Source: Candidatus Latescibacterota bacterium
Lineage (GTDB): Bacteria; Latescibacterota; UBA2968
Length of the DNA: 64,000 bases
Assembly: GCA_965198115.1 (NCBI GenBank)
Contig: OZ240241.1
Location: 3,232,001-3,296,000, forward strand
Reading direction: 5' to 3'
Below the pieces are notes generated by a model. It searched no databases. It saw only the letters and a list, made by a program, of their open reading frames with translations, and was not told the DNA's origin. Of this stretch, positions 11,664-39,291 are shown piece by piece. How positions within the stretch are numbered: the stretch's first letter is position 1; each line of letters begins with the position of its first letter. The position numbers were made by a program, and so were the translations under genes.

Positions 11664-12764
11664 TCAGGTCACGGCTGACATCGATGCCACTTGATGGGCC
11701 GGTTTTCCCGCGGCTCGTCGCACGCGAATCAATTCACCGACCACACTCACGGCGATCTCCTCCGGATTGTCGGACCCGATGTCCAGCCCGATCGGTGCGT
11801 GCACTCCGTCGAGGCGCTCCCGAGGAATTCCCTTCGCTTCCAGCTCTTTCCACATCAGCGCGATCTTTCGTCGACTCCCCAGCATTCCCACGTAAGCCGC
11901 ATTGGTCTTGACCGCTTGCTCGACGATCGGTTTGTCGAACTGATGGCCCCGCGTCACGGCGCAGATATAGGCCAGATCGTCGATCGCGAGATGCTCGAAC
12001 GCCGTCTCCAAATCCAGAACGAGCGTCTCGTCCGCCATCGGGAATCGCTCTTTGTTCGCGAACATCGGCCGATCGTCCACGACCACGATGCGGAAGCCGA
12101 CGGTGGCGGCGATTCTGGCGATCGCGAACGAAACGTGTCCGCCCCCGAACAGATACAGCGTCGGCTCGGGGCAGATCGACTCAAGAAACACCTTCCGTGG
12201 AACGCCGGCCGGATCCTCGACATCGATCACTTTCAACAGATCTTCCGGAACCGTCTCCATCTCGGTGACCTCGTTCCGAACGATCTCGTCCAGCGCGTCC
12301 TCACCCAGCGACCCAGCGCACTTCCCATCCTCGCGGACCAACAGCTTCAGCGCACCGGCGTCCGATCCCTGTGACACCAGAGTGGCCAGGACGGCGGATG
12401 CGCGCTCTGCCCGAACAGCCGAAACCTCCCGGAAAATGGCCTCCGATGTCCCACTGACGACCGGCTCCGTGAAAACTTCGACGTTGCCCCCACAGTTCAG
12501 CCCGTTTTCGCCTGCGTGCTGCTCGGTGAGAATGAAGTTCTGCAACGAAGAACGCCCGCTGTCCATCACCTCTCGTGCTTCGGACCATACGTCCGCTTCC
12601 AGACAGCCACCACCGACCGTACCGATGATCGTACCGTCTCCCTGCACGAGCATCTTTGCCTTCTTGCTCATCGGAAGGCTGCCCTTGCTCGAGACAATCG
12701 TCGACATCGCCGCGGGTTCCCCCGACGCCATCAATCGCAGTGCTTCTTCGAACACGTCCTTCAT
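11664..12764 (-). CDS. xdhC: XdhC/CoxF family molybdoenzyme maturation factor
   Basis: GTVGGGCLEA, GLNCGG, FGGGHV, YVGMLGSRRK, APIGLDIG..PEEIAVS. Confidence 0.92.
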   Translation of the reverse strand: MKDVFEEALRLMASGEPAAMSTIVSSKGSLPMSKKAKMLVQGDGTIIGTVGGGCLEADVWSEAREVMDSGRSSLQNFILTEQHAGENGLNCGGNVEVFTEPVVSGTSEAIFREVSAVRAERASAVLATLVSQGSDAGALKLLVREDGKCAGSLGEDALDEIVRNEVTEMETVPEDLLKVIDVEDPAGVPRKVFLESICPEPTLYLFGGGHVSFAIARIAATVGFRIVVVDDRPMFANKERFPMADETLVLDLETAFEHLAIDDLAYICAVTRGHQFDKPIVEQAVKTNAAYVGMLGSRRKIALMWKELEAKGIPRERLDGVHAPIGLDIGSDNPEEIAVSVVGELIRVRRAAGKPAHQVASMSAVT

Positions 12765-12816
12765 AGCATCACATCCTTGCCTCGCCCGCTCTCCTCGAAG
12801 CGCCGGGCGGGACAGG

Positions 12817-13983
12817 CTACCGCCAAACGGAGCGCAACGTCTTGGCCAGTTCGATCAGACTCTCCAGGTTGTGTGCGGGCATAAAGTAGTTCAGATACGG
12901 CAACGCCGTCTTCATCCCCAGACAAAGCGGCTGGTAACCCGGACTTCCCAGAAGGGGATTCAGCCACATCAGCTTGTGGACGCGTCGACGGAGCCGCTCC
13001 ATCTCCTGCCGCATCAGCCCCGTATCGCCGCGGTCCCATCCGTCGCTCACGATGATCATCACCGTCTTCGACCGCAGCATATCCCGCGCGAAAAAGTCGT
13101 TGAACTCGCGAATGCAGCTGCCGATGTCGGTGCCGCCCGCCCAGTCGTGGACCTGATCCGCAACTTCCCGCAGCGACTCTTCCACGCCCTTGGTCTTCAG
13201 CAGACGCGAGATCACCGTCATCCGAGTTGAGAAGACGCCTACCTCGACATCCGGGATCTCACGCTTGATGGCATAGATAAATTGTATCAAAAATCGGCTG
13301 TAACAGTCCATCGAACCGCTGACGTCGCACAGCACCATCAGCTTCGTTTTCTTGATACGCTTGCGGCGACGCTCCAGTTCCACGCCGTCACGACCCATCA
13401 ACGCGTTCCGCCGCCACGTGCGACGGAAGTCGATCTCCCGCCCGGAGTTGTCGGGAAACCGCCTCCGACTCCGTCGGTTCGCGATGATGTTCACGATCTC
13501 GGCGATCACGCGACGCGCCTGCTCGATCTCCTTGTCGGACATCGCGGCCAGGTCCTTCTGCATCAGGACCTCGTCGGGGCTCCACCCGGGATCCTCGGTC
13601 TCCCCCTCGCCCTCCTCCGCCTCTTCTTCCTCGGTCGTGTCAGTCGTCTCCGCCATCTCCTCGAGCGCTTCCGTCAGGTCGTTCTCGTCCATCTCCTGAG
13701 GAACCTCGACTTCGACCATTTGAGACGTGACGTTCCAGAATGCGTCGAAGACCTGATCGAACATCTCGATGTCGTCGAACCGCGACACGAGCGTCGCTCT
13801 TGCGGCCGCATAGAAATCGTGCCGATTCGACATCTCGATATGGCCGACGCTGTGGCAAAGATCGATCAGATTTCCCGAATTGACCTCCACACCCGCACTG
13901 TGGAGTGACCGTGTGAAAGCCACAACCCGCCCGAGCATCGTCGATTGATCGATCTGTAAAGACAATATCCCGTCCTTCGTCAC
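12817..13983 (-). CDS. CoxE-like VWA-domain protein
   Basis: DVSGSM MIDAS, WAGGTDIG, SDGWDRGD, WLNPL. Confidence 0.9.
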   Translation of the reverse strand: MTKDGILSLQIDQSTMLGRVVAFTRSLHSAGVEVNSGNLIDLCHSVGHIEMSNRHDFYAAARATLVSRFDDIEMFDQVFDAFWNVTSQMVEVEVPQEMDENDLTEALEEMAETTDTTEEEEAEEGEGETEDPGWSPDEVLMQKDLAAMSDKEIEQARRVIAEIVNIIANRRSRRRFPDNSGREIDFRRTWRRNALMGRDGVELERRRKRIKKTKLMVLCDVSGSMDCYSRFLIQFIYAIKREIPDVEVGVFSTRMTVISRLLKTKGVEESLREVADQVHDWAGGTDIGSCIREFNDFFARDMLRSKTVMIIVSDGWDRGDTGLMRQEMERLRRRVHKLMWLNPLLGSPGYQPLCLGMKTALPYLNYFMPAHNLESLIELAKTLRSVWR

Positions 13984-22262: not shown

Positions 22263-23027
22263 ATGAAACTAGGTTTCGTGACCTACCAAATCGGCAAGGA
22301 TATGGACGTCCCCACGATCATCGACGTCTGCCAGAAGACGGGTTTCCAGGGCGTTGAACTCCGAACGACGCACGCCCACGGCGTCGAATCCACACTCTCT
22401 GCCGAGGAACGACAAAAGGTGCGCAAGCAATTCGAAGACGGGGGCGTCGAAATCGCGGGGATCGGATCCGCCTTCGAGTACCACGCACTCGAAGAAGATT
22501 TGGTGAAAGAGAATATCGCGGGCACGATCGAATCGGCAAAGCTCGCCGCCGACCTCGGCTGCCCGGGCGTGAAGGTCAGACCGAACGGGCTACAGGTCGA
22601 CAACGGGGTACCCGAGGAGAAGACGCTCGAGCAGATCGGTCTCTCGATCCGCGAATGCGGGCAGGCGGCCGCAGACCTGGGTGTCGCCATTCGTGTTGAG
22701 GTCCACGGTCGTGAGACCAGCCGCCCGGACCGAATGCGGGCCATTATGGATCACGCCGACCACGACAACGTTCACATCTGCTGGAACTCCAACTTCAACG
22801 AAGTCGTCGACGGCACGATCGATGAAGCCTGGAATCTCCTCGGCCACCTGATCGGCCTCGTCCACATCACCGAGCTCTGGAAACCGGAGTATCCCTGGGC
22901 CGACTTATTCGCCCGCCTCGCGGCATCGGGCTACGAAGGATACACGCTCGCCGAGATCCCCCCCAACGACGACCCTGAGCGGGTCCTTCATTATTACAAG
23001 GCGCTATGGGACGCCTATCAACCTTAG
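22263..23027 (+). CDS. Sugar phosphate isomerase/epimerase (xylose-isomerase-like TIM barrel)
   Basis: GFQGVELR, VEVHG, LVHI, GYEGYTLAE. Confidence 0.88.
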   Translation: MKLGFVTYQIGKDMDVPTIIDVCQKTGFQGVELRTTHAHGVESTLSAEERQKVRKQFEDGGVEIAGIGSAFEYHALEEDLVKENIAGTIESAKLAADLGCPGVKVRPNGLQVDNGVPEEKTLEQIGLSIRECGQAAADLGVAIRVEVHGRETSRPDRMRAIMDHADHDNVHICWNSNFNEVVDGTIDEAWNLLGHLIGLVHITELWKPEYPWADLFARLAASGYEGYTLAEIPPNDDPERVLHYYKALWDAYQP

Positions 23028-23101
23028 AGCCGATTGGGAAATCAGGGTCATAGGAAATTGATTAATTCCACATTTCCTATCCGCATAGTGCGCTGCTCTT
23101 A

Positions 23102-24394
23102 GGGTTCGGAATAAATAAACGGTCGATCTCAATGTTGAGCCATTGGCCGGATCGTGTAGTTCCAGTCGCCGTGGAAATCGTGCGGAGTGAGATCGATTTG
23201 GGTCATCTGTTCATCGGTCACCTTGACCCCGTTAGGGTAGGGTCGCTTGTCGATCTCGGAGCGTACTCGGAGACCGGCTTGAGTGGTCGTTCCGGCAATG
23301 AGATTCACGGTTGCAGCCAGGCTGACCAGGGGCTTGCCTCGCCAGTTCATAGCGATGAAGGAGAACAGGCGATGTTCGATCTTGTTCCACTTACTAGTGC
23401 CAGGAGGGTAGTGGCATACGGTGATCGTCAGGCCAGTGCGATTCGCAAAGCGCTGCAGCTCCCACTTCCACAGCCGCGTCTTGGCGCCGTTGCTGCCGCC
23501 TGCGTCCGCCGTGATTAGCAGATGCGTCGAAGTGCCGTAGGCGGGCCGTCCCATGTTCTTCCACCAACTTCGGATCGCATTCACGGCGAAGCTGGCCGTG
23601 TCGTGATCGATACCGACACTTACCCAGCCTTCATCACGGCTCAGATCATACACTCCATAAGGGATCGCCTTGCCCTGAGCAGGCACTATGAAATCGTGTA
23701 CCTTCACACGCTCCGGGTCTCCCTTGGGTCGCCATTCTCGGCCAGGATTCTTGAAGTCGCCGATCAACTCTTTCTTCTTGGTGTCCACCGAGATAACGGG
23801 AAGGCCCTGCTGCTGCTGCTGGCTAATCCGATCATCGAGGTAAACGAACTGAGCGTCCCGATCCGGGTGTGCAGATCCCTCCCTTGTCTTCCGATTCGCC
23901 TGCAGCGTGTAATCGTGTTCGTGCAGGAGATTGGCAACGATCCTGGGGCTCACCGAATGCCCCATCGCTTGCAACTCGGCGGCCAGTTTGCGAGTGCTCT
24001 TCGATGTCCATCTCAGAGGATTGTCGTCAGGCGACCCCGCAGTCGTTGGCTCGACCAGATCATTCAGGTCCTGCCACAGCGTCGGGTCCGTGTCGGCCTT
24101 CCGCTTACGACCGCCGCCTGGACGCCGGATGCGAGCCGGGTCCAAAGGTTCGTCCGACCTCAACTCCTGAATGCCACGAAAGATCCGCTCTCTGGACATT
24201 CCTGTCGCCAGAGCCACAATCGCGATCCCACCGTGACCCAACGCTTCGGCTTCCGTGGCGGCCCACAGACGACGCGTGCGTTCCGTCAGCACCGGAGCCA
24301 AGGCTTCATACTTCGTTCGGAGAGTTTCGACGTCCACACTCCGAGCGTAAGATCATTACCTTGAAAAGTGCAGCACTTATTTCGTGGCAAACCC
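23102..24394 (-). mobile_element. ISAzo13-family IS, copy 1 (intact transposase 23129-24337)
   Basis: ISVDTKKKE, ITADAGGSNG, PPGTSKWNKIEHRLF; ends GGGTTCGGAATAAATAA/GGGTTTGCCACGAAATAA; TTA duplication. Confidence 0.93.
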
Positions 24395-24567
24395 TTAGTC
24401 ACTCTCCAACGAATTCATCAGGCAACCCGGCAGGCCACCTCTCGATCCGAGGGTTGTAAATCGGCTACCATCATACACGGACACGCCACCGGTGCGTTTG
24501 CCGAACCAAAGGTAGGCCTTAGTGCTTTCCGTGGTGGCAAAAACCGTAGTGTCCGAGAGTGGACTGA

Positions 24568-25317
24568 ATGGCTAAACGAAAGAAAGGGACCAAGCGGCGA
24601 CTCGCCGATCTCTACATCGTGGGGATCGGCATTCACGGACGTCGTCACCTTACCTGGGAAGCTGAGAACGCACTCCGCGAAAGCCGCATTGTTCTGGATG
24701 AGACCGGTCAGATTGAGATGACGAAGGAACTCAATCCCAACACAGTCGATATGGCACCTCTCTATTGGACGGGTGAAGAGAGAGAGGTCGTCTACGAGCG
24801 ACTCGTAAAGAGAGCGCTTGACGAAATTGAGATCGGGCCGGGTGTCGCAGTGGTCACCTATGGGCACCCGCTCTTTTTCGACGATATCAACCACCAGCTA
24901 CTTCGACGCTGTCGAAGACGCAAGCTTGACTGTGTCATCGTCCCGGGTATTTCGTGCCTGGATACACTGAGCGTCGATCTCGAGATCGACTACGGCGATG
25001 GCCTACAGGTTTACGAAGCGACGGACCTCGTAGATAACGGTTATCCACTCAACCCCCACGTGCACACACTCATCCTTCAGCTGGGGGAATTCAATCACTC
25101 AGAGACGTCCGATACCCTGGACCCGGCTCCGGGACGTTTGAAAAAATTGGTCGCTTTTCTTCGCAAGACCTATCGGAGAGACCAGAAAGTGGTGATCTGC
25201 TACAGCAATGACGGCTCGGAGGGCTTGTTCCTGAAGACCAGGCTCCATCGGCTGGACAGCCATTGGAGAAAGATCTTCCCGGGGACGACTCTGTATGTCC
25301 CACCTGCGGAGATTTGA
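24568..25317 (+). CDS. Borosin-type SAM-dependent peptide alpha-N-methyltransferase (tetrapyrrole methylase fold)
   Basis: VGIGI, YWTGEEREVVY (Y-x5-R-x3-Y), YGHP, PGISCLD.L..DL.ID, YEATD, TTLYVPP match OphMA/SonM motifs as recalled. Confidence 0.8.
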   Translation: MAKRKKGTKRRLADLYIVGIGIHGRRHLTWEAENALRESRIVLDETGQIEMTKELNPNTVDMAPLYWTGEEREVVYERLVKRALDEIEIGPGVAVVTYGHPLFFDDINHQLLRRCRRRKLDCVIVPGISCLDTLSVDLEIDYGDGLQVYEATDLVDNGYPLNPHVHTLILQLGEFNHSETSDTLDPAPGRLKKLVAFLRKTYRRDQKVVICYSNDGSEGLFLKTRLHRLDSHWRKIFPGTTLYVPPAEI

Positions 25318-25386
25318 ACCACCCTTGGGTCTGGCCAAATCCCGCCACACGCCTCAGACGTCAGCAACCCACAATCTTCCCGGGTC

Positions 25387-25784
25387 ATGAAAACGCGTTC
25401 GACTCTCAGCCTGCTCGGCCTCCCACTCATCTTCCTTGCTTCCACATACGCCCCCCTCGATCTGACGCAAGCCGATCGCATCCTCGTCGCCGTTGCCCTC
25501 ACCGCCGCGATGCTGTGGACGCTCGAACCGGCGACGACCCGGGCGCCTGGGGGTCGCAGAACGAGCAGGACACGCGCCCCCTCGCTCCGTTCGCCGAAAT
25601 CCCGATGGTCGAGCCCGATCAGCTGGCCGAGCTCTGGAAACCGGAGTATCCCTGGGCCGACTTATTCGCCCGCCTCGCGGCATCGGGCTACGAAGGAGAC
25701 ACCCTCGCCGAGATCCCCCCTAACGACGATCCCGAGCGGGTCCTGCACTACTACAAGGCGCTCTGGAACGCGTATCAACCGTAG
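25387..25784 (+). pseudogene. Mosaic of duplicated fragments of three neighbouring genes
   Basis: 25387-25531 ~ 32101-32245; 25530-25617 ~ 33846-33933; 25627-25784 ~ 22870-23027. Confidence 0.92.
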
Positions 25785-25822
25785 ACATCGGGGAATGGGG
25801 GAATGACATAGAACCATCCACC

Positions 25823-26341
25823 CTATGATTCCGCCATTCCTCGATGCTCTGCTTCCTCTTCTACTGACGGGCCGGCGTTCGCCTCGGGCGTCTCCGCCAT
25901 AACAGTGTCGGAGACCTGAGTCTGTAGATCACCCATTGCCGGTGAGGGCGTGAGATCCGGAACGCCGGGCACGACTCGACGTATTTCCTCCATCAACCGC
26001 AGTGGTTCGAAGGGTTTCGCCAGGATCCCACGGACGCCCAATCCCAAGAGTTGTTTGGCCACCACATCCGAGACGAATCCGGACACCACAATGATCGGCA
26101 GCATCAGTCGCCTTCGCTGAAGTGCTTCCAACAGATCGATACCGCTCGGCCCAATCATATGGATGTCGAGCAGCATCAACCCGACCTCCTCTTTCTCGAG
26201 CACGTCGATAGCCTTCACCGCGCTCGGCGCTTGTAGTGGATGATATCCAGCTGCACGCAGAATCTTCGACAAAAGTGTACGAACCTGACGGTCATCGTCT
26301 ACGATCAAGATTCGTCGTTGGCTCTCCGTGTATCTGGGCAT
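25823..26341 (-). CDS. Single-domain response regulator with acidic tail
   Basis: ILIVDDD, LLDIHM, VVSG, AKPF. Confidence 0.9.
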   Translation of the reverse strand: MPRYTESQRRILIVDDDRQVRTLLSKILRAAGYHPLQAPSAVKAIDVLEKEEVGLMLLDIHMIGPSGIDLLEALQRRRLMLPIIVVSGFVSDVVAKQLLGLGVRGILAKPFEPLRLMEEIRRVVPGVPDLTPSPAMGDLQTQVSDTVMAETPEANAGPSVEEEAEHRGMAES

Positions 26342-26370
26342 TTTGTGGCTCCTCTCTCTGACGGGTCAAC

Positions 26371-27639
26371 TCAGGCTCCAAGTTCCGACAGAAAGGCATC
26401 CGCCTTTTCGAGATCCTGCCTGGCAGTCTGGATGATGCCATCCAGGAACCTGCCACCGAGGGCAAAGCGTTTAACCACGGACTCGTCAATCTCCGACACC
26501 AGGTCTTCCTGCTTCTCCTCGACACTTAATCGATGGCACAGCACGTCCGCGAGGTGGATTAAACACACCATTCGTTGGTATCGACAGGTTCGCCAAGGCT
26601 CGTGGTGGAACAGGATGGCGTCCTGAACCGCTTCAGGGAGTTTCCATTCCCCGGCCAGGTGCCCACCCACGTCGGAATGAGTTAAACCCAGCACATCGGA
26701 TTCGTGTCTGGCGATCGTTCTTCGGTCGTCACCAACCTTCTCGAGAACCGGTTTGTAGTAGTATCCAAAGTATTGACCCAGAACGATCTGGCCGATGTCG
26801 TGGAGCATCCCGGCCAGGTAAGCCGACTCGCTCTCCATCTGAAGAAGCTTAGCGAGACTTCGAGCCACAAACGCTGTTCCAACCGAGTGCCTCCAGAACT
26901 CGCTGGCGTCAAAGGACGTCCCACTGTCGCTCTTGCCCAGACCTTCGATCACCTGAATCGACGCGACCAGGTTGGCGATTTCCTGCAAGCCGAGTAGAGT
27001 CACTGCGAGTTTGAGTGAGTCGATTCGGTTTCGAAAACCGAAGCAGGTGGAGTTGGCCAGTTTGAAGACCGTCGCAAGAAGACCTGGGTCCAGCTGAATG
27101 CGTTCGGCGATCTCGTCGCAGGACGCACCCTGTCGGGACAGTGACGTGATATCCACATAGGTGGATGGGAGCGTCGGCAATCCTTCGATCTCGCGTACAC
27201 GCTGAATCACGCTCGCCTCGATGTCATCCTTGGTCGCGATGGCACCGGACGTCAACACGCTGTGGACCCTCTCCTGCAATACCTCCTGCCCAAAGGGCTT
27301 GGCGAGGTAGGACTGTGCGCCTGCGTTCCGTGCCTTGACCACGCCTTCCTCCGATGGCTTGGCCGCTGTCAGAATCACAGGAATGTCGTTGTACTTCGGG
27401 CTGAGACCCACGAGTTCCGTCAACCGGAGACCATCGCCCGGAACGTCGATGTCGGCGATGATCGCGTGAGGGGGAGTCTGCCGAAGTCGATCCACCGCCG
27501 TGAGTGTATCCGTCGCTACATCTGGCACGTAGGTCTCCGATAGCATATCGGAGATCACCTGGCCGAAGCGGGGTCGGTCGACGACCAGGATCCGTTTCTT
27601 GTCGAACGTGCGCTGGGTTCGAGATCCAATTGCGACCAT
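26371..27639 (-). CDS. Receiver-HDOD domain signalling protein
   Basis: N-terminal REC (YLAKPF); LPTLP, DPGL..LANS, FWRHS, GMLHDIG, HSDVG..W.LP. Confidence 0.9.
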   Translation of the reverse strand: MVAIGSRTQRTFDKKRILVVDRPRFGQVISDMLSETYVPDVATDTLTAVDRLRQTPPHAIIADIDVPGDGLRLTELVGLSPKYNDIPVILTAAKPSEEGVVKARNAGAQSYLAKPFGQEVLQERVHSVLTSGAIATKDDIEASVIQRVREIEGLPTLPSTYVDITSLSRQGASCDEIAERIQLDPGLLATVFKLANSTCFGFRNRIDSLKLAVTLLGLQEIANLVASIQVIEGLGKSDSGTSFDASEFWRHSVGTAFVARSLAKLLQMESESAYLAGMLHDIGQIVLGQYFGYYYKPVLEKVGDDRRTIARHESDVLGLTHSDVGGHLAGEWKLPEAVQDAILFHHEPWRTCRYQRMVCLIHLADVLCHRLSVEEKQEDLVSEIDESVVKRFALGGRFLDGIIQTARQDLEKADAFLSELGA

Positions 27640-27989
27640 ACGATCACTCCACACCGGAACACGTCTTGAAAGGATTCGGGAAATCTGGGGGAAGGCTGAT
27701 GAACAGCAGTCGAACTGCGGAGGTGTGTTTGCAACTCGTGTGCCTGTGACAACAACGGGACACAAGCCGAGCAACGAGAGGGGGTTACTGCGATTGGTCG
27801 CTGAGATGGATCAGGCGTGTAGAATCAGAATCTGGTTCACTCCGATAGATCGATTTGTGACAGGCATCCAGAGCCTTATGAGGCGCGGTTTCCGGTTCAG
27901 CGGACTGGAACGAAATGATCCTGACCTATTGGAAAAGAGGCATTCGAGGATGTCATTCGGAAAGAATCTTGACCACTTACCGGCACTAA

Positions 27990-29280
27990 GGGTTTGCCAC
28001 GAAATAAGTGCTGCACTTTTCAAGGTAATGATCTTACGCTCGGAGTGTGGACGTCGAAACTCTCCGAACGAAGTATGAAGCCTTGGCTCCGGTGCTGACG
28101 GAACGCACGCGTCGTCTGTGGGCCGCCACGGAAGCCGAAGCGTTGGGTCACGGTGGGATCGCGATTGTGGCTCTGGCGACAGGAATGTCCAGAGAGCGGA
28201 TCTTTCGTGGCATTCAGGAGTTGAGGTCGGACGAACCTTTGGACCCGGCTCGCATCCGGCGTCCAGGCGGCGGTCGTAAGCGGAAGGCCGACACGGACCC
28301 GACGCTGTGGCAGGACCTGAATGATCTGGTCGAGCCAACGACTGCGGGGTCGCCTGACGACAATCCTCTGAGATGGACATCGAAGAGCACTCGCAAACTG
28401 GCCGCCGAGTTGCAAGCGATGGGGCATTCGGTGAGCCCCAGGATCGTTGCCAATCTCCTGCACGAACACGATTACACGCTGCAGGCGAATCGGAAGACAA
28501 GGGAGGGATCTGCACACCCGGATCGGGACGCTCAGTTCGTTTACCTCGATGATCGGATTAGCCAGCAGCAGCAGCAGGGCCTTCCCGTTATCTCGGTGGA
28601 CACCAAGAAGAAAGAGTTGATCGGCGACTTCAAGAATCCTGGCCGAGAATGGCGACCCAAGGGAGACCCGGAGCGTGTGAAGGTACACGATTTCATAGTG
28701 CCTGCTCAGGGCAAGGCGATCCCTTATGGAGTGTATGATCTGAGCCGTGATGAAGGCTGGGTAAGTGTCGGTATCGATCACGACACGGCCAGCTTCGCCG
28801 TGAATGCGATCCGAAGTTGGTGGAAGAACATGGGACGGCCCGCCTACGGCACTTCGACGCATCTGCTAATCACGGCGGACGCAGGCGGCAGCAACGGCGC
28901 CAAGACGCGGCTGTGGAAGTGGGAGCTGCAGCGCTTTGCGAATCGCACTGGCCTGACGATCACCGTATGCCACTACCCTCCTGGCACTAGTAAGTGGAAC
29001 AAGATCGAACATCGCCTGTTCTCCTTCATCGCTATGAACTGGCAAGGCAAGCCCCTGGTCAGCCTGGCTGCAACCGTGAATCTCATTGCCGGAACGACCA
29101 CTCAAGCCGGTCTCCGAGTACGCTCCGAGATCGACAAGCGACCCTACCCTAACGGGGTCAAGGTGACCGATGAACAGATGACCCAAATCGATCTCACTCC
29201 GCACGATTTCCACGGCGACTGGAACTACACGATCCGGCCAATGGCTCAACATTGAGATCGACCTTATTTATTCCGAACCC
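27990..29280 (+). mobile_element. ISAzo13-family IS, copy 2 (transposase 28047-29255)
   Basis: Near-identical to copy 1 (one R/Q change, 2-bp indel near the right end). Confidence 0.93.
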
Positions 29281-29283
29281 TTA

Positions 29284-31943
29284 GTACTCCTGTTCGCAAA
29301 TACGGTGACGTATTCTAAGCAGACTTTGCCAAGGGCGTATCGTAGAACCTGAGTTTGTCGATCATCTCCGCGAGATCTGTTCGTGTGAACTTCCATTTGA
29401 AGGGTGTGGCGATACGTCCGTAGCGTTCCTGAAAACCGAGGATTCTTGCCTCAAGCTCTTCGAGCGATGCAAATTCGATAGGTGTCAGAGCCTTGCGTTT
29501 GAGGATCGAGAAGTAGATCTCGATCTGATTGAGCCAGCTTGCGTGGATCGGAAGGTGAACGGGGTGGATGTTTGGCCACTTCCCCTGGATACGGTCGATG
29601 CATGTTTGCCCTCGGTGCGAGGAGCCATTATCCACGATGAGGTAGACTTTCTTTGCCGAGCAATAGGGTTTCCGGCTCATGATCAGGCTCAGGAGCCGGT
29701 TGAAGGGCTCGATACCCGAAGAAGACTCACAGAGACCGAAGATTCGACCATTGTGCACGTCGAGAGCAGCCAGATAGGCCAGGGCTCCTTTCCGCTCGTA
29801 TTCGTGTTTCAACGCGTGCCGCTCTGTTCGAGGCTGGCGGTAGGGTAACGTGCTTGCGAGCTCGTGCTTGAATACTGGTCTTTTCGTCGGCAGAAAGTAC
29901 ATATTCCCTCGGCCCTAAAGGCTTTCCTTGCCATTGGCGGTGATACAGATCAAGGACTCTACCTGCTTTGGTTTGGAAGTCCGGGTCCCGTGGGAAAATC
30001 CAGGAGCGATGATACCAAGGACGAATCGCGTCCTCGTTCAACCAGCGCCAGACAGTGGCGCCGCTGATCTTGGCAACGAAGCCCCTTTGCACTGCCTCGG
30101 CGGCAATCTCGGAACAGCTGAACCGCGAGAGCGGTATCCCGCTCTCGCTCGGTAGTTCACACGCCAGCGCCTTGATCTGAACGACCACCTGAGGGGGGAA
30201 AACCGGGCGGGCGCCCGGGACGAGATCTATCTTCGAGTCCCGAAAGACGCTCTTCGAAAAAGCGCTTACGCCATTTGCTTACGATCGGACGCGGGGGTCA
30301 AGTCCCATAGTCAGTTGAAAACTCATCGGGCCCCGTAGTTTGGTCAGGCTCTCTTTTGAGCATTCTGTTCGTTGTCGAGATTCAGATCTTTGTTCAGTGC
30401 TTGCCTGAGTAGGGGAAGATGTTTGTATCCGCTCACGCGTCGCAGGCGAGGTTCGATGTCGAGGAGTGCGGCAGCCACCCATCTGTGTCTCTGGGGAGAG
30501 TTGTTCCAGCGTCTGACCTTCCGAGTGAGCTCGCCGGTCCTGCTGTTGAGGGCTTCGATGCAGTTGGTGGTTCGGAAGCTTCGTTTCAGGAATGGGAGCA
30601 TACCCAGCCGGTGGAGGGTCAGGGTTTCCTCCAGGCCTTCCTCGAGGCTCGTTACGGCAGACTGATTCATCAGCTTCAGTTCGGGTTTAAGTGATTCGAG
30701 TGCGGCCTTTGCCTCCTCGTAGGTGTCGCAGTCATAGGCTTTCTGGAGCTTCCGTCGAACTCTTGGACGTTCCCTCTCCGGGAGATAGCTGACGACATTC
30801 TCGCGCTTGTGCCACTGACAGCGATGAACGCGCACATACCCTTTGAGGGCTTTGGTGACAGCACTGCGGAGTCCCTTTGAGCCGTCAAGCACAACGAGAA
30901 GGCCCTGGTCGTAGCACAGGCCTCTCCGGATGAGGTCCTGGATCAGCTGGCGGCAGATCCGTTCGTTCTCCGTCGCCGATTCGACGAAGCCCAGGGGGAT
31001 CTTCTGGCCGTCCATCGTGACCCCCGGAGCGATCACGATCTCTTCGTCGGCAAAGCTCTTTCCGTCAATGAACAGGGTCACGAAGCCGTAGTCGTCGAGG
31101 GGACGCTCCTGGAACTGCTTCAGCTTCTTCGCGGTGGCTTTGATGAACCGCCGCGAGACGGAGGACGCTGAGATACCAAACGCTTCTGGAACCGATTCGG
31201 CACAGGCCTTGTAGTTGCGGCACGAGATCCCCTTGAGAACACGAAGCAACAGCCCCTCGTCCGTCTTCTTGGGCGTCTGTAGAGCCCGGTATGCAGCCAG
31301 GGAAACCTCTGCGTCGGCCTCGACGTCGCGCACCCGGGGAACGTCTAACGGGAGCTTCTGGCCATCAGATACACGGATCCCTTCTGGCTTCCCCACCGAC
31401 GATGCGCCTGCTCCGAACCTTTGCGCGCATACCGAACGCCTGCGAGCTGCTCGACCTCCTGCTGGAGGAGGTCTGCCACTGCCTCCAGACCCAACGGGAT
31501 CAACGCCTGGATCACCGACAAACGCGTCTCCAAATCGATGACATCGCCCTCAACCTTGACTTCACCATCGCCTACAAATAGCTTCTCCATCTGGGCTCCT
31601 TTCTTACGGGTATACGCTCCTACACGTCTACCCAACGTAAGTTTGGAGCCCTCTAAGTTTCAACTACGATAGGCACAACACCGACGCGGGACATCCAACC
31701 GTTGGGCGATAATCTTGTTGGATAATCCCTCGGCGGCGAGAAGCACGATTTTCGATCGGATCACTTGATAATACGGTAACGTATATTGTCCAGCCATTCG
31801 CTCGACGAGGTCGACCCGTTCCTTCTCAGACAGTAGCACCACATAAGGCGAACGTCTTGGCATTGTTCTCCTCCTTTTGAAGGAGAACATAAGCTACAAA
31901 TAATGTTCAGAACATACGTAATAATATTTATGAACCCATGCAC
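29284..31943 (-). mobile_element. IS630-family IS, copy 3, interrupted by an IS256-family element
   Basis: Same ends and ORFs as copies 1/2; orfA split at 30295/31683. Confidence 0.92.
30296..31682 (-). mobile_element. IS256-family IS (transposase 31590-30344, frameshift ~31368)
   Basis: 8-bp TSD GACGCGGG (30288-30295, 31683-31690); IRs GGT...AGTTGAAA; FIDGK, LDGSKGL, RCQWHKREN, TTNCIE. Confidence 0.92.
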
Positions 31944-31965
31944 TAAGCCTCGTCCTATCCCCAAA

Positions 31966-32052
31966 ACCTCAGTGATCTCAGTGCCTGCCTGCCGGAGGAG
32001 GTGGGTCCTCAGTGCCCGTCCTGAGTAGGCTGCGCTGCAGCCTTACCGAAGG
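31966..32052 (+). repeat. 9-mer (ctcagtg) array with embedded short palindromic elements
   Basis: acctcagtg atctcagtg ... tcctcagtg; taggctgc-gct-gcagcctta hairpin. Confidence 0.5.
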
Positions 32053-32100
32053 AGCCTTTTTCTTCTCCGTCACACGCCACCAAGGCCTATCTTGGCACCA

Positions 32101-33456
32101 ATGAACCTGCGTGTTCTCTTCAGCCTTCTGAGTCTTCTCCTCATCGCCTGCGTTTCGGCGTTTGCGCCCCTCGATCTGACGCAAGACGATCGCATCCTCG
32201 TCGCCGTTGCCCTCACCGCCGCGATGCTGTGGACGCTCGAACCGGTCCCGATCGAGTGGACCGCGCTCGCGCTGTTGTTCGCCCTGCCCGCGCTCGGGCT
32301 CGTGACCTTTGAACAGGCCTTCGCCTCTTTCGGGGGAAAGGCGATGTGGCTCGTCATCGCCGGAATGGTCCTCAGCTCGCTGATCACCGAAACCCAGCTC
32401 GCGGGCCGACTGTCCAGATGGATTGCCGGACGCGCTGGCCACGCTGGCTTCATCCTCGTCCTGCACGTCATCGGTCTGATCCTGGCCGTGCTCATCCCAT
32501 CCGGCGTCGTGCGTGTGCTCATTATTATGCCTGTCATCGTCCGGTTGCTGGAGGATCTCGGCGAACGACCGGGTTCGAAAACGTCGGCCGCTATCGTCCT
32601 CTCCATCGTGTGTGCGACTTACTACGGGGGAACCGGCGTCCTCACCGCTTCCGTTCCGAACCTCGTAGTGATGGGCGTGCTCGAATCGCGCGGCACGCTC
32701 GTCTACTGGGCGAACTGGGCGCTCCATATGTTTCCCGTCATCGGGCTTCTCCGTGTCGCGATCGGGGCCGGATTCGTCTACTTGCTTTTTCGCCCACAAC
32801 CGCTTGCGAAGCGCGCATCATCGCCCCCTCCTGAACCGATGGGGCACAGGGAGATCACCGGGCTCATCTTGCTCGGTCTGGCGATTGGATTCTGGTCCAC
32901 CGATATCATCCACGGCATCCATCCGGCCCTCGTCGGTCTCGGCATTGCCGTTTGCTGTTTTCTCCCTCGCGTAGGCCCCCTACATATCAACGTCTTGCGA
33001 AAGATCAATTTCCCCATCGTCGTCTACATCGGAAGCGTATTCGCCATTGGTGAGGCGATGGAAGTCGTCGGCACGAGCGGTCGCATGGCAAGCGCCTTGG
33101 CCCGAGCCATCGACCTTACAGGATCGGCGGGCGAGCAGCTGTCGGCCATCACGTGGGCAGTCGCTCCCTTCAATTTCCTCGTCGACACCGCAGTCGTCGC
33201 CGGCGTCCTGACCCCCGCCCTGCTCGACCTCGGCGTCGGAGCGGGGCTTACGACGACCCAGGTCGGACTCGCCGTGGCCGTCGGCACCGGACTCGTCTTC
33301 ATCCCCTACCAGGGTGCCCCGTTCATCCTCGCCTACAGCTTTCAATACGTCAGAATGAGCCAGTTCATCGCCTTGATGGCCCTGATCTGTCTCGTCCATC
33401 TCCTTCTGCTCGTCCCGCTCAACCTGGTTTACTGGCGGTGGCTCGGTCTGTTCTGA
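32101..33456 (+). CDS. SLC13/DASS family anion permease
   Basis: WTLEPVP, LIPSGVVR, GGTGVLTASVPNL, IPYQGAP; many TM segments. Confidence 0.85.
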   Translation: MNLRVLFSLLSLLLIACVSAFAPLDLTQDDRILVAVALTAAMLWTLEPVPIEWTALALLFALPALGLVTFEQAFASFGGKAMWLVIAGMVLSSLITETQLAGRLSRWIAGRAGHAGFILVLHVIGLILAVLIPSGVVRVLIIMPVIVRLLEDLGERPGSKTSAAIVLSIVCATYYGGTGVLTASVPNLVVMGVLESRGTLVYWANWALHMFPVIGLLRVAIGAGFVYLLFRPQPLAKRASSPPPEPMGHREITGLILLGLAIGFWSTDIIHGIHPALVGLGIAVCCFLPRVGPLHINVLRKINFPIVVYIGSVFAIGEAMEVVGTSGRMASALARAIDLTGSAGEQLSAITWAVAPFNFLVDTAVVAGVLTPALLDLGVGAGLTTTQVGLAVAVGTGLVFIPYQGAPFILAYSFQYVRMSQFIALMALICLVHLLLLVPLNLVYWRWLGLF

Positions 33457-33463
33457 CCGATCC

Positions 33464-33492
33464 TTGACAGGCAGAAGTCGCACGGGTACTAT
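33464..33492 (+). promoter_or_regulatory. Sigma70 promoter of the iorA-like gene
   Basis: TTGACA, 17 bp, TACTAT. Confidence 0.65.
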
Positions 33493-33530
33493 CTCCTCAG
33501 TCCATCATCGTACCCATCGGAGACAATTCA

Positions 33531-35147
33531 ATGTCACGACAGAATGTCAATGGCGAGCAGGCGCTCGCGTGGGGGGCCGTCGAGGCGGGTGTGTCCGTCG
33601 TATCGGGCTATCCCGGATCGCCCGGCACGAACACATTCAACGCCCTCCAGGAGATGAGCAAGGATCACGGCCATCATACCGAGTGGTGCCTGAACGAAAA
33701 GATTGCCCTCGACATCGGGGTCGGCTCATCCCAGGGCGGAAAACGCGCCCTCGTGTGCTTGAAAAGCGTCGGGATGAACGTCGCCCTCGACACCCTGATG
33801 GTGGTCAATATGACCGGCGCCCACGCAGGGCTCGTCGTCCTGATGGGCGACGACCCGGGCGCCTGGGGGTCGCAGAACGAGCAGGACACGCGCCCCCTCG
33901 CACCGTTCGCCGAGATTCCGATGGTCGAGCCCGCGAGCCCCGCCGAGGGCCGCGCGACGATGAAGTGGGCGTTCGATTACTCTGAAAAACATCGGACGAT
34001 CGTCATCGTCCGCATCACCCGGAGCTACAGCGTCCAGATCGAAGAAGTGGACGCCCTCGACGCGCCGAAAACCAAACCGTCCCTCGACCCCGCTCGCGAG
34101 CCGTGGCGATTCGTCTCCGCTCTGAAAACAGTCGATCGCAGCCACAGGCGACTTCATAAAAAGCTGGCCGCGATCCGATCCGAATTCGATTCGAGCGACC
34201 TCAACACCGTGTCGGGTTCGGGGGTGAAGGGCATCATCACGACCGGATTCGTCCACACCAAGTTCCTCGAAGCCGTCGAGGGCGCCGACCTCTCCGACGT
34301 CGCAGTCCTGAAGGTCGGCACCCTGTATCCACTGCCCGAAAAAACGATCGGTGACTTCCTCGTAGACCGTGATGAGGTCGTCGTGTTCGAAGAGGTCGAT
34401 CCCTACCTCGAGGACGCCATCAAAACCATCGGCTACGACGTTGGCGCGAAGGCGAAGATCCTCGGCAAGCGAACGGGCGACGTCAACTGGGTCGGCGAGT
34501 TGTTCCGCTGGCATATGCAGGAGACACTACGGTCGTTCGCCCCGGGATTTTCGCCAGCGAAGGAATTCACAGAAGAGAATTGGGAAGAGGAGAAACCGTT
34601 CAGGAAGGGCCACTGCTCGGGTTGCCCCTACGTCGAGATCATCAAGGCGTTCCGTGATGAAGCCGGGAAGCTCGGGCAGAACCCCTTCCTCGCGGGCGAC
34701 CCGGGATGTCTCGTCATCGCCGCCGAATACCTCGACACGAAGCTTTGTATGGGGTCCGCCCTCGGGGTAGCCTCTGGACTCAACTCGTCTGGTGTCAACG
34801 AAAGGACCGTGGCGGTCATCGGCGATTCGGCCTTCTACCACGGCGGACTGCCAGCGCTCGTTCAGGCCAAAGCCACGAACGCCAACACCCTCATCCTCAT
34901 CCTCGACAACGGGGGCGCGCTCACCACGGGCGGCCAGCCAACACCGGACGAGGGCATCGACCTGGGCGACAACACAGGCCCCCAAGTAGGCATCGACACC
35001 ATCGCCCGCGCCTGCAGAGTCGACCCCATCTGGGAAGTCGCGGAAACGGATTCCGACGAACGAATGCGGGAAGTCTTCCGCGAAGCCCTTCAGAACGACA
35101 CACTGAGTATGGTCATCCTGCGGAAGGCGTGTAAGCCGGTCGATTGA
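33531..35147 (+). CDS. iorA: Indolepyruvate ferredoxin oxidoreductase alpha-subunit-like TPP enzyme
   Basis: GYPGSP, NEKIAL, KSVGMNVALD, DDPG..SQNEQD, CSGCP, GDSAFYH..LDN. Confidence 0.82.
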   Translation: MSRQNVNGEQALAWGAVEAGVSVVSGYPGSPGTNTFNALQEMSKDHGHHTEWCLNEKIALDIGVGSSQGGKRALVCLKSVGMNVALDTLMVVNMTGAHAGLVVLMGDDPGAWGSQNEQDTRPLAPFAEIPMVEPASPAEGRATMKWAFDYSEKHRTIVIVRITRSYSVQIEEVDALDAPKTKPSLDPAREPWRFVSALKTVDRSHRRLHKKLAAIRSEFDSSDLNTVSGSGVKGIITTGFVHTKFLEAVEGADLSDVAVLKVGTLYPLPEKTIGDFLVDRDEVVVFEEVDPYLEDAIKTIGYDVGAKAKILGKRTGDVNWVGELFRWHMQETLRSFAPGFSPAKEFTEENWEEEKPFRKGHCSGCPYVEIIKAFRDEAGKLGQNPFLAGDPGCLVIAAEYLDTKLCMGSALGVASGLNSSGVNERTVAVIGDSAFYHGGLPALVQAKATNANTLILILDNGGALTTGGQPTPDEGIDLGDNTGPQVGIDTIARACRVDPIWEVAETDSDERMREVFREALQNDTLSMVILRKACKPVD

Positions 35148-36652: not shown

Positions 36653-36800
36653 TCGAGTTCCGAGTTCAGAGGTATTGCAAGAAGACACAGGGGCGAAGCC
36701 GTCGCTCGTCTACCGTCCACTGTCTACCGTCCACGGGTTCGCGGCCGGGAGGCCGCTCCCACCAGTTTGTTTCCGTTCGTGTATTTCGTGTTTTTCGTGG
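36653..36800 (+). repeat. Cluster of 7-mer and 9-mer tandem repeats at the recombinase-region edge
   Basis: tcgagtt ccgagtt; cgtctac cgtccac tgtctac cgtccac; ccgttcgtg tatttcgtg tttttcgtg. Confidence 0.7.
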
Positions 36801-38635
36801 CTCCTGTCTTGGAGTTTTGGTACCAGTTGGATGTTCAAACCCATCGACAGAGAGAAAGGCTGCCGAGAGTTTACGTGGATTCACCCGGTAATCCAAGACC
36901 ATCTCACCCCCCGGATGTAGATGAATCCGCTCGACACAGGCGTGGATGATGGCCTTGCGCATTCGAAACTGCTTAAGCTGATCCTCTGAGTAGCTTCTAT
37001 TCTTTACGAGAAAAGATGGAACCGTATCGTCGACATCGACTAGCGAGAGGATTCCATCGCCCGCAAACGTCAGCGCGTGGGCGAGACCATCCTTAAGTGC
37101 GTCGGCCCCCTCGCGCGCATCCAGCTTGGCAGTTATCTGATGAATCTCTTGATCCAGGTGCACGCCTTCTGCTTGGATCCTGTCCACTTGCTTTTGATAC
37201 CGGCTTCCCGTCAGCGTTCCAGATACGTACGCAAAATCCGCTCGCTCAACATGTCCTGCAAGACCGTCCCTCTTCTTTTTCAGACTTTCGAGTCGCTGCG
37301 CCATCGCTTCTCCGCCTTCTGAATCGAACTGTTCCTGCCAGATCGCCAGGATTTTCTCGGGCTTCATCAGCATCCGATGCACTTGTGCGGACACTCGCTG
37401 ATTCACGTCCGATATTTTTTGGCTGGGCGCGCTGCACCTCTTTCCGAACTGATCGAATCTGGCGTTGCAGTAGAGCCGGCCATCGATCAGGTTCGACCGT
37501 TGGCCATACATCCCCCGTCCACCCCCTCGGTATCCTCGGTCCTCTTCGTGACAGACTCCGCAACGAAGAAGCTTGCCAACAGATACTCGGTCGCGTCGGT
37601 GCGGGTGCCTTGCGACTTCTTGCCGTCCTTGGCCGCAGGCTGTGCCTTTTGCCAGGTGGCGTCGTCGATGATCCCGGGCACCGAGCAGGAGACCCATTCG
37701 GATCTGGGCTTCAGCCGTTGTTTTTTCCGACCCGTCAGCGGGTCCTGCTCATACGCGTATTTGCTGTAGTTGAAGACTCCCTTGTAGGTCTCCGAAGATA
37801 GCACGCCCCGCACGTGCTGCGGTCGCCACGGCACACCTTTATTGGTCAGGGTGCCTTGCGCATCGAGAGTCAGGGCGATCCGGTAGGTCGCCACACCTCG
37901 CAGACACATCTCAAACATACTGCGGACCACCTTGGCCTTCTCATCATCAACGACGAGCCGCGAACGCGAGCCCTGCTTGCCGCGAGCCGAGTCGCCTGTT
38001 AGCTCCAGCCGATAGCCGAAAGGGGTGCAACCGCCCGGCCAGTGACCATGTTCGGCTGCCGCAAGTTTGCCCTGGATCATCCGTCGGTGGCGCGTGTCAG
38101 AATCAGCTTCGACGATCGATAGCCTAATGGACGTCTCCAGCTTCTCCGGATCGAGCCAGCCCTCATTTATGGTGTAAATCAGCGCGTCCAATTCCAAAAG
38201 GACGGCCGTAAACTCGCCTCTCTGACGGGCCTTCTCGGCACTACCGGCTTTGAGCCTTATCAGACGATCAAGGAACGTCGACCGCAGCACCGACAACTTG
38301 CCGGCAGTTCGTAACTCCTTCGCCGTCTCCAGCAGAACACGCCCGGCTGGACGTTCCCAAAGCGGATACCGTTCTGCCGATACCCCAAGATCGAGCAAGA
38401 TGGTATGGGAGTCGTCCACGAACACCGTCTCGGCTGACTGCTGTTTGGCAGGCGTCCGCTTCCCGCCGTCGTAGACGACCAGGGAATCGAACCGGTGCAG
38501 GGGCCACTGGTTCTGTTCGGCGTCTTCGTTCAGCGCACGGATGTTGCCAAGATGCGTCTCGGCTGCTCGCTGCTCGGCGGACGAAGAACGGTGGTAGGAT
38601 AGGATGACTGCATTCTGTGGCAAGGTAGTCTGCAT
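36666..38635 (-). CDS. Large serine recombinase (resolvase + recombinase + Zn-ribbon + coiled coil); apparent frameshift ~37577
   Basis: YHRSS catalytic motif, DRLIR, GHWPGG.TPFGY, IIDDATWQKAQ, then LRCGVC...YC...C; GGAGG RBS before ATG 38635. Confidence 0.85.
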
Positions 38636-38652
38636 TCGGGCCTCCATCGGTA

Positions 38653-39291
38653 TCAGGGGGTTATCACTTTCGGCTGTAGCCAATTTGACTGATTCTTCGA
38701 CGTCTGTCTCGTGATTTCCTGGTGCATCCACAGGATTCCGGGCACAAACAGGTTCCTGTGCTGAATGGGGTCAATCCAGCCCATCCATTTCGGAAAGCTA
38801 CCATCCGACATGAGGGCAATACCATAGACAGCCACTGTAATTCCAAACAGGAGACCCAGGATACTTGCGAGGCCTATCTCAATCTGTCTCACTGCGAAAG
38901 TGGCAAGGAACAGCATTTCTTTGTCTGCTGTCGAAGCGGCTGCCCAACTGTCCACCATCTGTTTGAGCGCTATGCCATCAACGGCCTGTAGGGCTCCCGC
39001 TACTGATAGACTCGACCCAGCGCCAACGACGCCCAAGTAAGCCCAACTCGCGCCATCACCGTTAGACATCAGTCTCGACAGGAAAACCAGGGCGACCACG
39101 ATCAATATTATGCCGAACAGCTGCATCAAGTGGCTAGCTATCCAAGGGCGGTTGGCGGCATATTCCGTGAAGGCAGCCACCGGGTCGTTCGGATCAGCAT
39201 TCGATGGACGCAAGAAGGTTCCTACAAACAGGGTCAAGGCTCCGGCAACAGCAGCTACAGCACACATCTTATAGGTGTTGTGTTCAGACAT
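38653..39291 (-). CDS. Multi-pass membrane protein (DUF4386-like), C-terminus probably truncated
   Basis: About 5 TM segments; hydrophobic pattern is lost after FPKWMGW. Confidence 0.6.
   Translation of the reverse strand: MSEHNTYKMCAVAAVAGALTLFVGTFLRPSNADPNDPVAAFTEYAANRPWIASHLMQLFGIILIVVALVFLSRLMSNGDGASWAYLGVVGAGSSLSVAGALQAVDGIALKQMVDSWAAASTADKEMLFLATFAVRQIEIGLASILGLLFGITVAVYGIALMSDGSFPKWMGWIDPIQHRNLFVPGILWMHQEITRQTSKNQSNWLQPKVITP

Follow-up and report, generated by a model that had tools for sequence, protein, structure and literature searches.

How two core genes can come to frame the same intergenic slot twice, each time around a different cargo, is the question raised by a locus in the genome of a Candidatus Latescibacterota bacterium (GenBank assembly GCA_965198115.1, contig OZ240241.1). 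This genome, referred to here as G000, is a single contig of 8.43 Mb with 59% GC and many insertion sequences (IS). The window, that is the whole stretch of DNA analysed, comprises 64,000 nucleotides (G000:C1:3232001-3296000), and all positions are given in its own numbering unless a genome position is named. Between a gene of the TIM-barrel sugar-isomerase family and the gene of an SLC13 transporter the slot is present twice in tandem, as two diverged alleles, A and B, with different cargo, and the added DNA would, judging from how the copies differ, stem from another lineage. The parts of the locus are the following:

22263..23027, forward strand: intact gene of the TIM-barrel sugar-isomerase family (PF01261), the left core flank of the slot
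22839..22874: imperfect palindrome within the isomerase gene, the left arm being the template of an inverted patch and the right arm the duplication breakpoint
22870..22940, forward strand: 71-bp isomerase stretch, of which there are two identical copies
22941..23027, forward strand: isomerase tail of allele A, the expressed copy, with 12/87 differences from tail B, 10 of them synonymous
23102..24394, reverse strand: ISAzo13-family insertion sequence (PF07592) with its 3-bp target duplication intact
24568..25317, forward strand: cargo A, a stand-alone borosin-like (SonM-like) S-adenosylmethionine (SAM) methyltransferase (PF00590; SonM E 7e-16)
25387..25452, forward strand: diverged SLC13/DASS transporter head of allele A, with 29/66 differences from head B
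25453..25531, forward strand: 79-bp SLC13 stretch, two copies with 1 mismatch, ending at the GG deletion junction
25530..25617, forward strand: 88-bp internal iorA fragment, a second allele with 3 synonymous differences
25615..25631, reverse strand: inverted isomerase patch, made up of the '9-bp linker' 25618-25626 and 3-bp and 5-bp microhomologies, 16/17 to its template
25627..25784, forward strand: orphan isomerase 3' end, the 71-bp repeat followed by the allele B tail, with Tyr>Asp at a conserved aromatic site
25823..27636, reverse strand: cargo B, a single-domain response regulator and a REC-HDOD gene (PF00072, PF08668)
27990..31950, right end approximate: IS cluster with a second ISAzo13 copy and an IS630-type element in which an IS256-family element is nested
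32101..33456, forward strand: intact SLC13/DASS transporter gene with head allele B, the right core flank (PF00939/PF03600; TIGR00785 below cut-off)
33531..35147, forward strand: intact gene of an iorA-like oxidoreductase alpha subunit (TIGR03336 E 6e-123, below cut-off)

The second copies of the SLC13, iorA and isomerase pieces lie where a preliminary description of the locus had placed them, with the identities it gave and with its GG junction, and its order of parts stands, but it passed over the IS cluster between the REC-HDOD gene and the intact transporter gene. Each core gene keeps one intact copy adjoining both cargos. Along the SLC13 copy (25387-25531 versus 32101-32245) 29 of the first 66 bases differ and then 1 of 79 (Fisher p 3e-11), and along the isomerase copy (25627-25785 versus 22870-23028) the divergence steps from 0/71 to 12/87, with 10 synonymous differences (Fisher p 6e-4). 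The iorA piece (25530-25617 versus 33846-33933) differs at 3 of 88 bases, all synonymously, and is joined to the SLC13 piece via a common GG; ahead of it about 1.6 kb of SLC13-iorA is absent, a deletion size obtained by computation. Every duplicated piece matches its local partner alone across the 8.43-Mb genome. The repeat unit measures 2757 bp, and subtraction of the 1293-bp IS and its 3-bp target duplication leaves 1461 bp, in agreement with the added piece of about 1.46 kb proposed at the outset.

In the isomerase tail and the iorA piece combined, 13 of 15 differences are synonymous (binomial p 3e-7), and the pieces have therefore diverged as working alleles and not as dead copies. This excess, together with the sharp identity steps at both slot borders, agrees with the earlier suggestion of two diverged alleles in tandem, one of which would derive from another lineage. 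Duplication in place, after which the copy would have decayed and each cargo been inserted separately, without any incoming allele, is scarcely credible, since a dead copy would not gather such an excess and stretches of 0-1% divergence abut others of 14-44%; what it can call upon are the two amino-acid changes in tail B and, in the accessible part of work on Escherichia coli, template-switch duplications that arise without donor DNA (PMC1428787). The orphan tail carries an Asp at a site that is aromatic in 19 of 20 distinct matches (18 with Tyr and one with Phe; the single Asp is the orphan copy), and on this basis the structure is suggested to be old enough to decay. The iorA piece, the inverted patch and the isomerase tail share one open frame (25530-25784), which the SLC13 head enters out of frame and whose 89-aa chimeric product is database-listed as predicted protein P0077. 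The chimera is probably not functional, and the scar itself is likely to be without function.

The join between the iorA and isomerase pieces holds a further feature. Positions 25615-25631 are the reverse complement of isomerase positions 22839-22855 at 16 of 17 bases, or 20 of 22 if the match is extended into iorA, and the template sits 15-31 bp ahead of the breakpoint within the isomerase gene. With one mismatch at most, the 17-mer of the patch occurs four times genome-wide, its own copy counted, and random 9-mer linkers were matched near either breakpoint in 7 of 20,000 trials. The 9-bp linker of the preliminary description is thus present, but the idea of an untemplated filler was rejected, as it is templated by the isomerase gene. 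The surrounding palindrome is built on a 5-bp inverted repeat (22839-43/22870-74), and its bottom-strand stem is predicted to be weak at -5.7 kcal/mol, a value without shuffle control. Around the patch the illegitimate joint shows the 3-bp and 5-bp microhomologies and a longer imperfect match into iorA. The patch reads as the footprint of template switching, in which the polymerase would have switched twice, first across the palindrome and then onto iorA.

It is proposed, with a probability of roughly 65%, that the allele of a related strain entered with one end paired by homology and the other fixed by an illegitimate, template-switched join, and that a 1.6-kb microhomology deletion then trimmed the product. 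To begin with, the slot would have been an integrase-free hotspot whose alleles were swapped via recombination in the flanking core genes, so that every allele comes with an isomerase tail and an SLC13 head of its own. DNA reaching from the isomerase gene via the methyltransferase gene into iorA would then have been anchored in or upstream of the isomerase gene, while its far end would have been fused to the resident isomerase gene 71 bp before the allele boundary by the two switches, the one across the imperfect palindrome leaving the inverted patch and the next one using a short imperfect match to iorA; here the junction is observed and the mechanism surmised. The added unit likely first spanned all of SLC13 into iorA. 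Deletion at the GG microhomology, a junction that can likewise be read directly though its place in the order of events is conjectural, would have reduced the SLC13-iorA repeat, once about 1.8 kb long, to 79 + 88 bp, and because the long repeat was thereby lost, collapse is proposed to have become rare, so that only the trimmed form survived. The insertion sequences would have come later, while the orphan pieces began to decay. The intact isomerase gene is seamless, which would fit an anchor. The structure is likely to be the trace of a rare recombination accident at a hotspot with no dedicated machinery behind it.

A number of observations weigh against this reading. The methyltransferase is found in none of 40 relatives, no same-species genome being among them, and the expectation that relatives would carry it between the isomerase and SLC13 genes was accordingly disappointed; nor was a REC-HDOD match seen inside any relative's slot. 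Neither a slot with a single allele (A-only or B-only) nor the anchor was seen in a genus set that consists of G000 and one relative, G001, and in genus g4 the isomerase and SLC13 genes are unlinked. Proteins of G001 carry the database label Gemmatimonadota, those of a more remote homologue the label Candidatus Latescibacteria. Tails A and B tie in their closeness to G001, at 70 and 71 of 87 bases. The comEC match (PF03772) of G000 is split over two frames (G000:C1:826316-827105) and represents a pseudogene or an assembly indel, and no inverted patch was found at the junction of a parallel case in genome G035, described below. Further points come from short-read contigs of two runs, both made from one sample that may be the source (run X3, with little of the stretch in it, was left out). 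These contigs do not cover tail A (22900 up to the IS), and in them the 71-bp stretch continues into tail B only; the junction contigs have 28-30 letters on their short side, 1-3 under the 31-letter bridging rule; and both runs represent the same sample.

The short-read evidence bears on whether the assembly is a chimera of two strains with one allele each, which is judged very unlikely. The absence of tail A from the contigs, an upstream contig depth of 3.5 versus 10 for the mosaic in run X1 and a contamination estimate of 5.1% would all be in keeping with a chimera. However, both novel junctions (25502-25559 and 25556-25656), including the inverted patch, occur letter for letter in the contigs of both runs at the single-copy depth of their neighbours. 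In addition, the common SLC13 59-mer reaches about twice the neighbouring depth (22 versus 8.5-10.6 in one run, 9 versus 3.4-4.5 in the other), and the tail-B contig is at single depth, 10.6 and 4.47, where the sum of two paths entering it would give 13.5 and 10.2. The gap at tail A may be explained by contig cleaning, which tends to discard short paths of low depth when they adjoin an IS at 700x. As the repeats exceed the word length, the contigs cannot phase excision or single alleles.

The same arrangement could have arisen by the entry of a small circle, whereby the template-switched join would have closed one allele into a circle, whether in the donor or following uptake, and a single crossover would have brought it in, either allele A via the 71-bp repeat, as was first envisaged, or allele B via the SLC13 repeat. 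Both routes would yield the exact observed string and the repeats are 99-100% identical where the crossover is required, yet 71-79 bp is a short target for RecA recombination, the circle was not seen, and the insert in the parallel case has no duplicated isomerase piece; overall this course of events is considered unlikely. Crossover within the 71-bp identity is in any case not required, given that a linear donor anchored anywhere upstream leads to the same string, and the core-gene fragments that had been taken for homology arms look like what an illegitimate template-switched join and a subsequent deletion left behind. Re-excision had been predicted through the 71-bp repeat alone; three repeats (71, 79 and 88 bp) could collapse the structure, and both single-allele products would, as computed, have open reading frames, but no collapse was observed.

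Under the proposed addition of a related strain's allele, the newcomer is probably allele A, which agrees with the direction first assumed without fixing it. The first 12 residues of SLC13 allele B are identical to those of the G001 orthologue, head B matches G001 at 44 of 66 bases versus 35 for head A, and 6 of 10 post-stop bases match in B versus 2 of 10 in A, so that B looks more native and keeps more of the ancestral flank. Allele A looks more foreign owing to the GC content at third codon positions (GC3) of its cargo, 0.64 versus 0.76-0.79 in the flanking core genes, and its absence from relatives, and in genus g7 (below) it is likewise the divergent copy that lies beside the isomerase gene. 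G000 possesses dprA, its comEC match being split as noted above, and uptake by natural transformation may be possible.

The slot itself can be followed through the relatives, in which the isomerase (orthologue at E<=1e-30) and SLC13 genes were each matched in 38/40 genomes and adjoin in most genera. The distance between them is 0.3-10.2 kb in the 17 slots measured and about 25 kb in G028. A DapA/NanA-like gene occupies the slot in G001, G002, G009, G010 and G025, is represented by pieces in G005, G007 and G039, and lies behind the isomerase gene in 6/11 metagenome loci; it would appear to be the ancestral slot cargo. In G000 this gene has no close match (best long match 30%), and a weak alignment upstream of SLC13 allele B is all that was found of an ancestral remnant in either allele. 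Cargo in relatives includes restriction-modification genes, GmrSD, a kinase-phosphatase-helicase set and others. Integrase families are absent from the 50 slot open reading frames (ORFs) of relatives that were scanned (9 + 41), which include one transposase. The second set took in 41 of 56 listed ORFs, the 15 omitted being 4 scanned before, 5 acetyltransferase copies and 6 ORFs of G044 that mirror those of G028 in size; short ORFs were left unscanned. Likewise, a Pfam scan detected no site-specific recombinase between the isomerase and iorA genes of G000, although IS transposases are present; the nearest one is found past 36666, within an element that is partly multi-copy. Within the ORFs scanned the slot is integrase-free, in line with the first description, and in place of the hallmark of integrons and integrative elements, a recombinase with att sites at the cassette ends, its junctions fall within coding sequence.

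With conserved flanks and variable cargo, a pattern seen across species and not strains, the slot behaves as a mobile-element-free hotspot between core genes through much of the order. Recombination in the flanks may be reflected in allele switches in G000 and at the isomerase end of G035, and the isomerase and SLC13 trees differ, a comparison made without a formal test. The 52 other genomes of the order that were examined all lack a second isomerase tail; among metagenome contigs, an exact-pattern scan gave 0 matches and a protein-based scan 11 loci, none of them close. A search of shorter proteins for isomerase pieces returned four matches, of which one is the G000 mosaic and none is informative. 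Protein P0064, a 77-aa isomerase C-terminal piece on an 8.1-Mb contig of a closer relative, may represent a tail duplication or a broken gene.

A parallel is offered by genus g7 of the sister family, in which 5/15 genomes (G027, G035, G034, G045 and G028) have two divergent copies of a slot gene, 2/15 slots being visible in part only. G027 and G035 share one insert of about 2.2 kb directly behind the isomerase gene, in which the divergent allele of a 634-aa gene is joined to 110 bp of the gene next in line; a native-like copy of the 634-aa gene follows the insert. In windows compared between G035 and G030, identity amounts to 96-99% in the isomerase gene, drops to 79-95% within the insert and is back at 95-99% in the distal copy. 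The proximal copies cluster with G031 (98/98) and the distal copies with G030, G033 and G037 (100/99), without a clade test, and the last isomerase codons of G035 are closer to G031 than to G030, with G034 and G040 carrying the same type. The junctions of G000 and G035 have no common motif. The insert appears to be a second, independent event that repeats the G000 geometry at this slot, the divergent copy again lying next to the isomerase gene. The resident 634-aa protein (L028:4842-6743) is conserved, has no Pfam match and is found in 15/15 g7 genomes examined.

Other cargo in these slots merits mention. In G028 a 10-kb module encoding a kinase, a PP2C phosphatase and a helicase lies directly behind the isomerase gene, and G044 has ORFs of matching size there (L050:2400-11998 and L106:3267-12865); the module is defence-like and an integrase was not seen in it. 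Five g7 slots (L045, L046, L051, L053 and L107) contain recurrent cargo of the restriction-modification type, comprising BamHI-like, MmeI-like, GmrSD and DNA methylase genes, which makes the g7 slot a candidate defence hotspot.

Within G000 there are 90 low-copy local repeats, three of which belong to the slot locus. Several others are partial gene copies of 84-90% identity, and no three-gene mosaic or junction inversion was found at eight other loci probed at high sensitivity. A two-piece repeat at G000:4824034 was rejected as a candidate; transposon genes surround it, and it resembles an IS with an internal deletion. Of three repeat loci compared with G001, one has single-copy syntenic genes between its copies and two are largely or wholly absent. 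The 3' end of a PhyH-family gene is copied over 313 bp at 85% identity and 10 kb apart (L093:3142-3453 and 13451-13763; G000 257141/267450), the copy ending at an IS and the interval genes being mostly single-copy and syntenic with G001; it is possibly a truncated heteroallelic duplication. A 508-codon gene has a partial copy 8.7 kb downstream of the intact gene, at 87-90% identity and with an internal deletion of about 550 bp (L094:3503-4655 and 12237-12825; G000 284502/293236). Three more pairs (G000 1839463/1849120, 3342287/3349757 and 6709686/6712374) are local partial gene copies of 84-88% identity with other genes or IS between them.

The genome-wide comparison also speaks to whether a dedicated and repeatable integrase-free cassette system could be at work, in which core-gene fragments would serve as built-in arms for excision and re-insertion. 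The repeated accretion at the slot in 5/15 genomes of the sister genus and the intact repeats, whose collapse would leave open reading frames in both single-allele products, would suit such a system. Against it, none of the 52 other genomes of the order has a second isomerase tail, three-gene stitching was seen at the slot locus only among the 90 repeats, the G035 junction has no motif in common with that of G000, and the orphan tail has lost its conserved aromatic residue, all of which renders the system highly improbable. A broader conception is that the isomerase 3' end serves throughout the order as a standing docking site without an integrase, behind which slot alleles are added time and again, with the palindrome promoting the join, the leftover repeats allowing collapse to either allele as a reversible two-allele switch, and cargo travelling as small circles with core-gene fragments; this is regarded as improbable.

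The proposed pairing on one side with a template-switched join on the other has counterparts among known processes. In tandem inversion duplication a direct duplication encloses a central inverted segment at a short palindrome and all copies come from one chromosome; quasi-palindrome template switching is a related process. The inverted segment is found in G000 as the 17-bp patch, which lies at an imperfect palindrome, while origin from a single chromosome is at odds with its different alleles and cargo. In SPDIR (short-patch double illegitimate recombination), as in G000, a short templated patch lies between two microhomologies, but SPDIR makes microindels at one site and the G000 patch links two sites kilobases apart. 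The accessible part of the E. coli work describes amplification whose junctions are of microhomology, and a single duplication that has two junctions and includes an inverted piece (PMC1428787). It resembles G000 in its short microhomology with a nearby imperfect match, direct duplication, inverted piece and two switches, whereas the inverted piece is about 8 kb in E. coli versus 17 bp in G000, where the repeat copies are different alleles.

Homology-facilitated illegitimate recombination (HFIR) has, in the portion of PMC5361080 available, been invoked for immunity-gene arrays of the type VI secretion system in Vibrio cholerae. As in G000, a new module there comes to lie beside a conserved upstream anchor, older content is pushed downstream and orphan fragments remain at the join, with no integrase. 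Those arrays consist of effector-immunity pairs, whereas G000 has housekeeping flanks and unrelated cargos, the cargo of the other allele was not replaced, and its join bears an inverted patch from two switches, with a deletion forming a second junction. The G027/G035 insert has a layout of the HFIR kind too. By analogy, the G000 event would work like HFIR plus template switching. Hotspots without mobile elements renew their content through double homologous recombination within the core genes on either side (PMC5635113), and replacement flexible genomic islands have been described (PMC4033161); as far as the accessible sections of both go, they share with the slot its fixed core flanks, variable cargo (restriction-modification genes in relatives) and allele switches inside the flanks. 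Such models replace one allele by another, whereas G000 keeps two in tandem; what could be consulted of PMC11375855 supports flank recombination for additive transfer in general. Merodiploids made by transformation in Streptococcus pneumoniae also contain a tandem duplication with two alleles after uptake of related DNA, but in the part of that report at hand (PMC3784515) the junctions are kilobase IS repeats and the units about 100-900 kb, as opposed to a microhomology junction and a unit of a few kb.

The literature searched contains nothing on this locus or this combination of scars. Gene order is the usual basis for inferring that DNA was added without an integrase, whereas the G000 chromosome retains base-level scars of several steps, namely allele borders in core genes, the template-switched join and the trimming deletion. 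It provides a worked example of how a replacement hotspot may grow and a signature that could be searched for, namely a short inverted patch whose template lies beside the breakpoint, while no new machinery or biological function is shown.

Cargo A is borosin-like, as first described, but no precursor peptide gene lies beside it, the non-IS flanking DNA amounting to just 70, 170 and 69 bp. A profile search of the genome gave no match to PF07746, which we take as a proxy for a borosin-binding-domain precursor, and no second methyltransferase copy was found elsewhere in G000. The best solved matches are SonM, dbOphM and OphA. Residues Y58, R67, Y71 and Y93 of SonM, noted for this split borosin methyltransferase in the accessible part of PMC8429565, align to Y66, R72, Y76 and Y98 of cargo A, and the three tyrosines are invariant in 13 aligned sequences. 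Cargo A thus resembles SonM in its TP-methylase family and four aligned residues and, unlike the split borosin system as portrayed there, has no precursor peptide gene alongside. Its best homologue is 67% identical, and three distant loci with identities of about 50% adjoin neither isomerase nor SLC13 genes. In one locus (L079:5328-6726) a 50%-identical methyltransferase homologue immediately follows a short ORF made up of tandem repeats, acidic and rich in proline, which is a possible substrate peptide for that methyltransferase subfamily. REC-HDOD genes such as that of cargo B have 12 matches in G000, 7 in G001 and homologues in 10/40 relatives.

The ISAzo13 element at 23102..24394, of 1293 bp and with 73 near-identical copies in the genome, would be a later insertion. 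The second copy (27990-29280) is inverted relative to the first, and its flanking 3-mers are unmatched, as in 13/45 copies examined. This mismatch hints that DNA next to it was deleted, perhaps the ancestral slot gene. As to an inversion between the two copies, the flanking 3-mers do not discriminate the orientations, and the present orientation is the simpler tandem. The inverted copies bracket the methyltransferase gene, the mosaic and the REC pair, a 3.6-kb block that could invert or move as a composite. A promoter and terminator scan stayed at chance level. Beyond the slot, at window positions 36666-38731, a recombinase-domain gene (PF07508) and an adjoining ORF are partly multi-copy in the genome and apparently unrelated to the slot.

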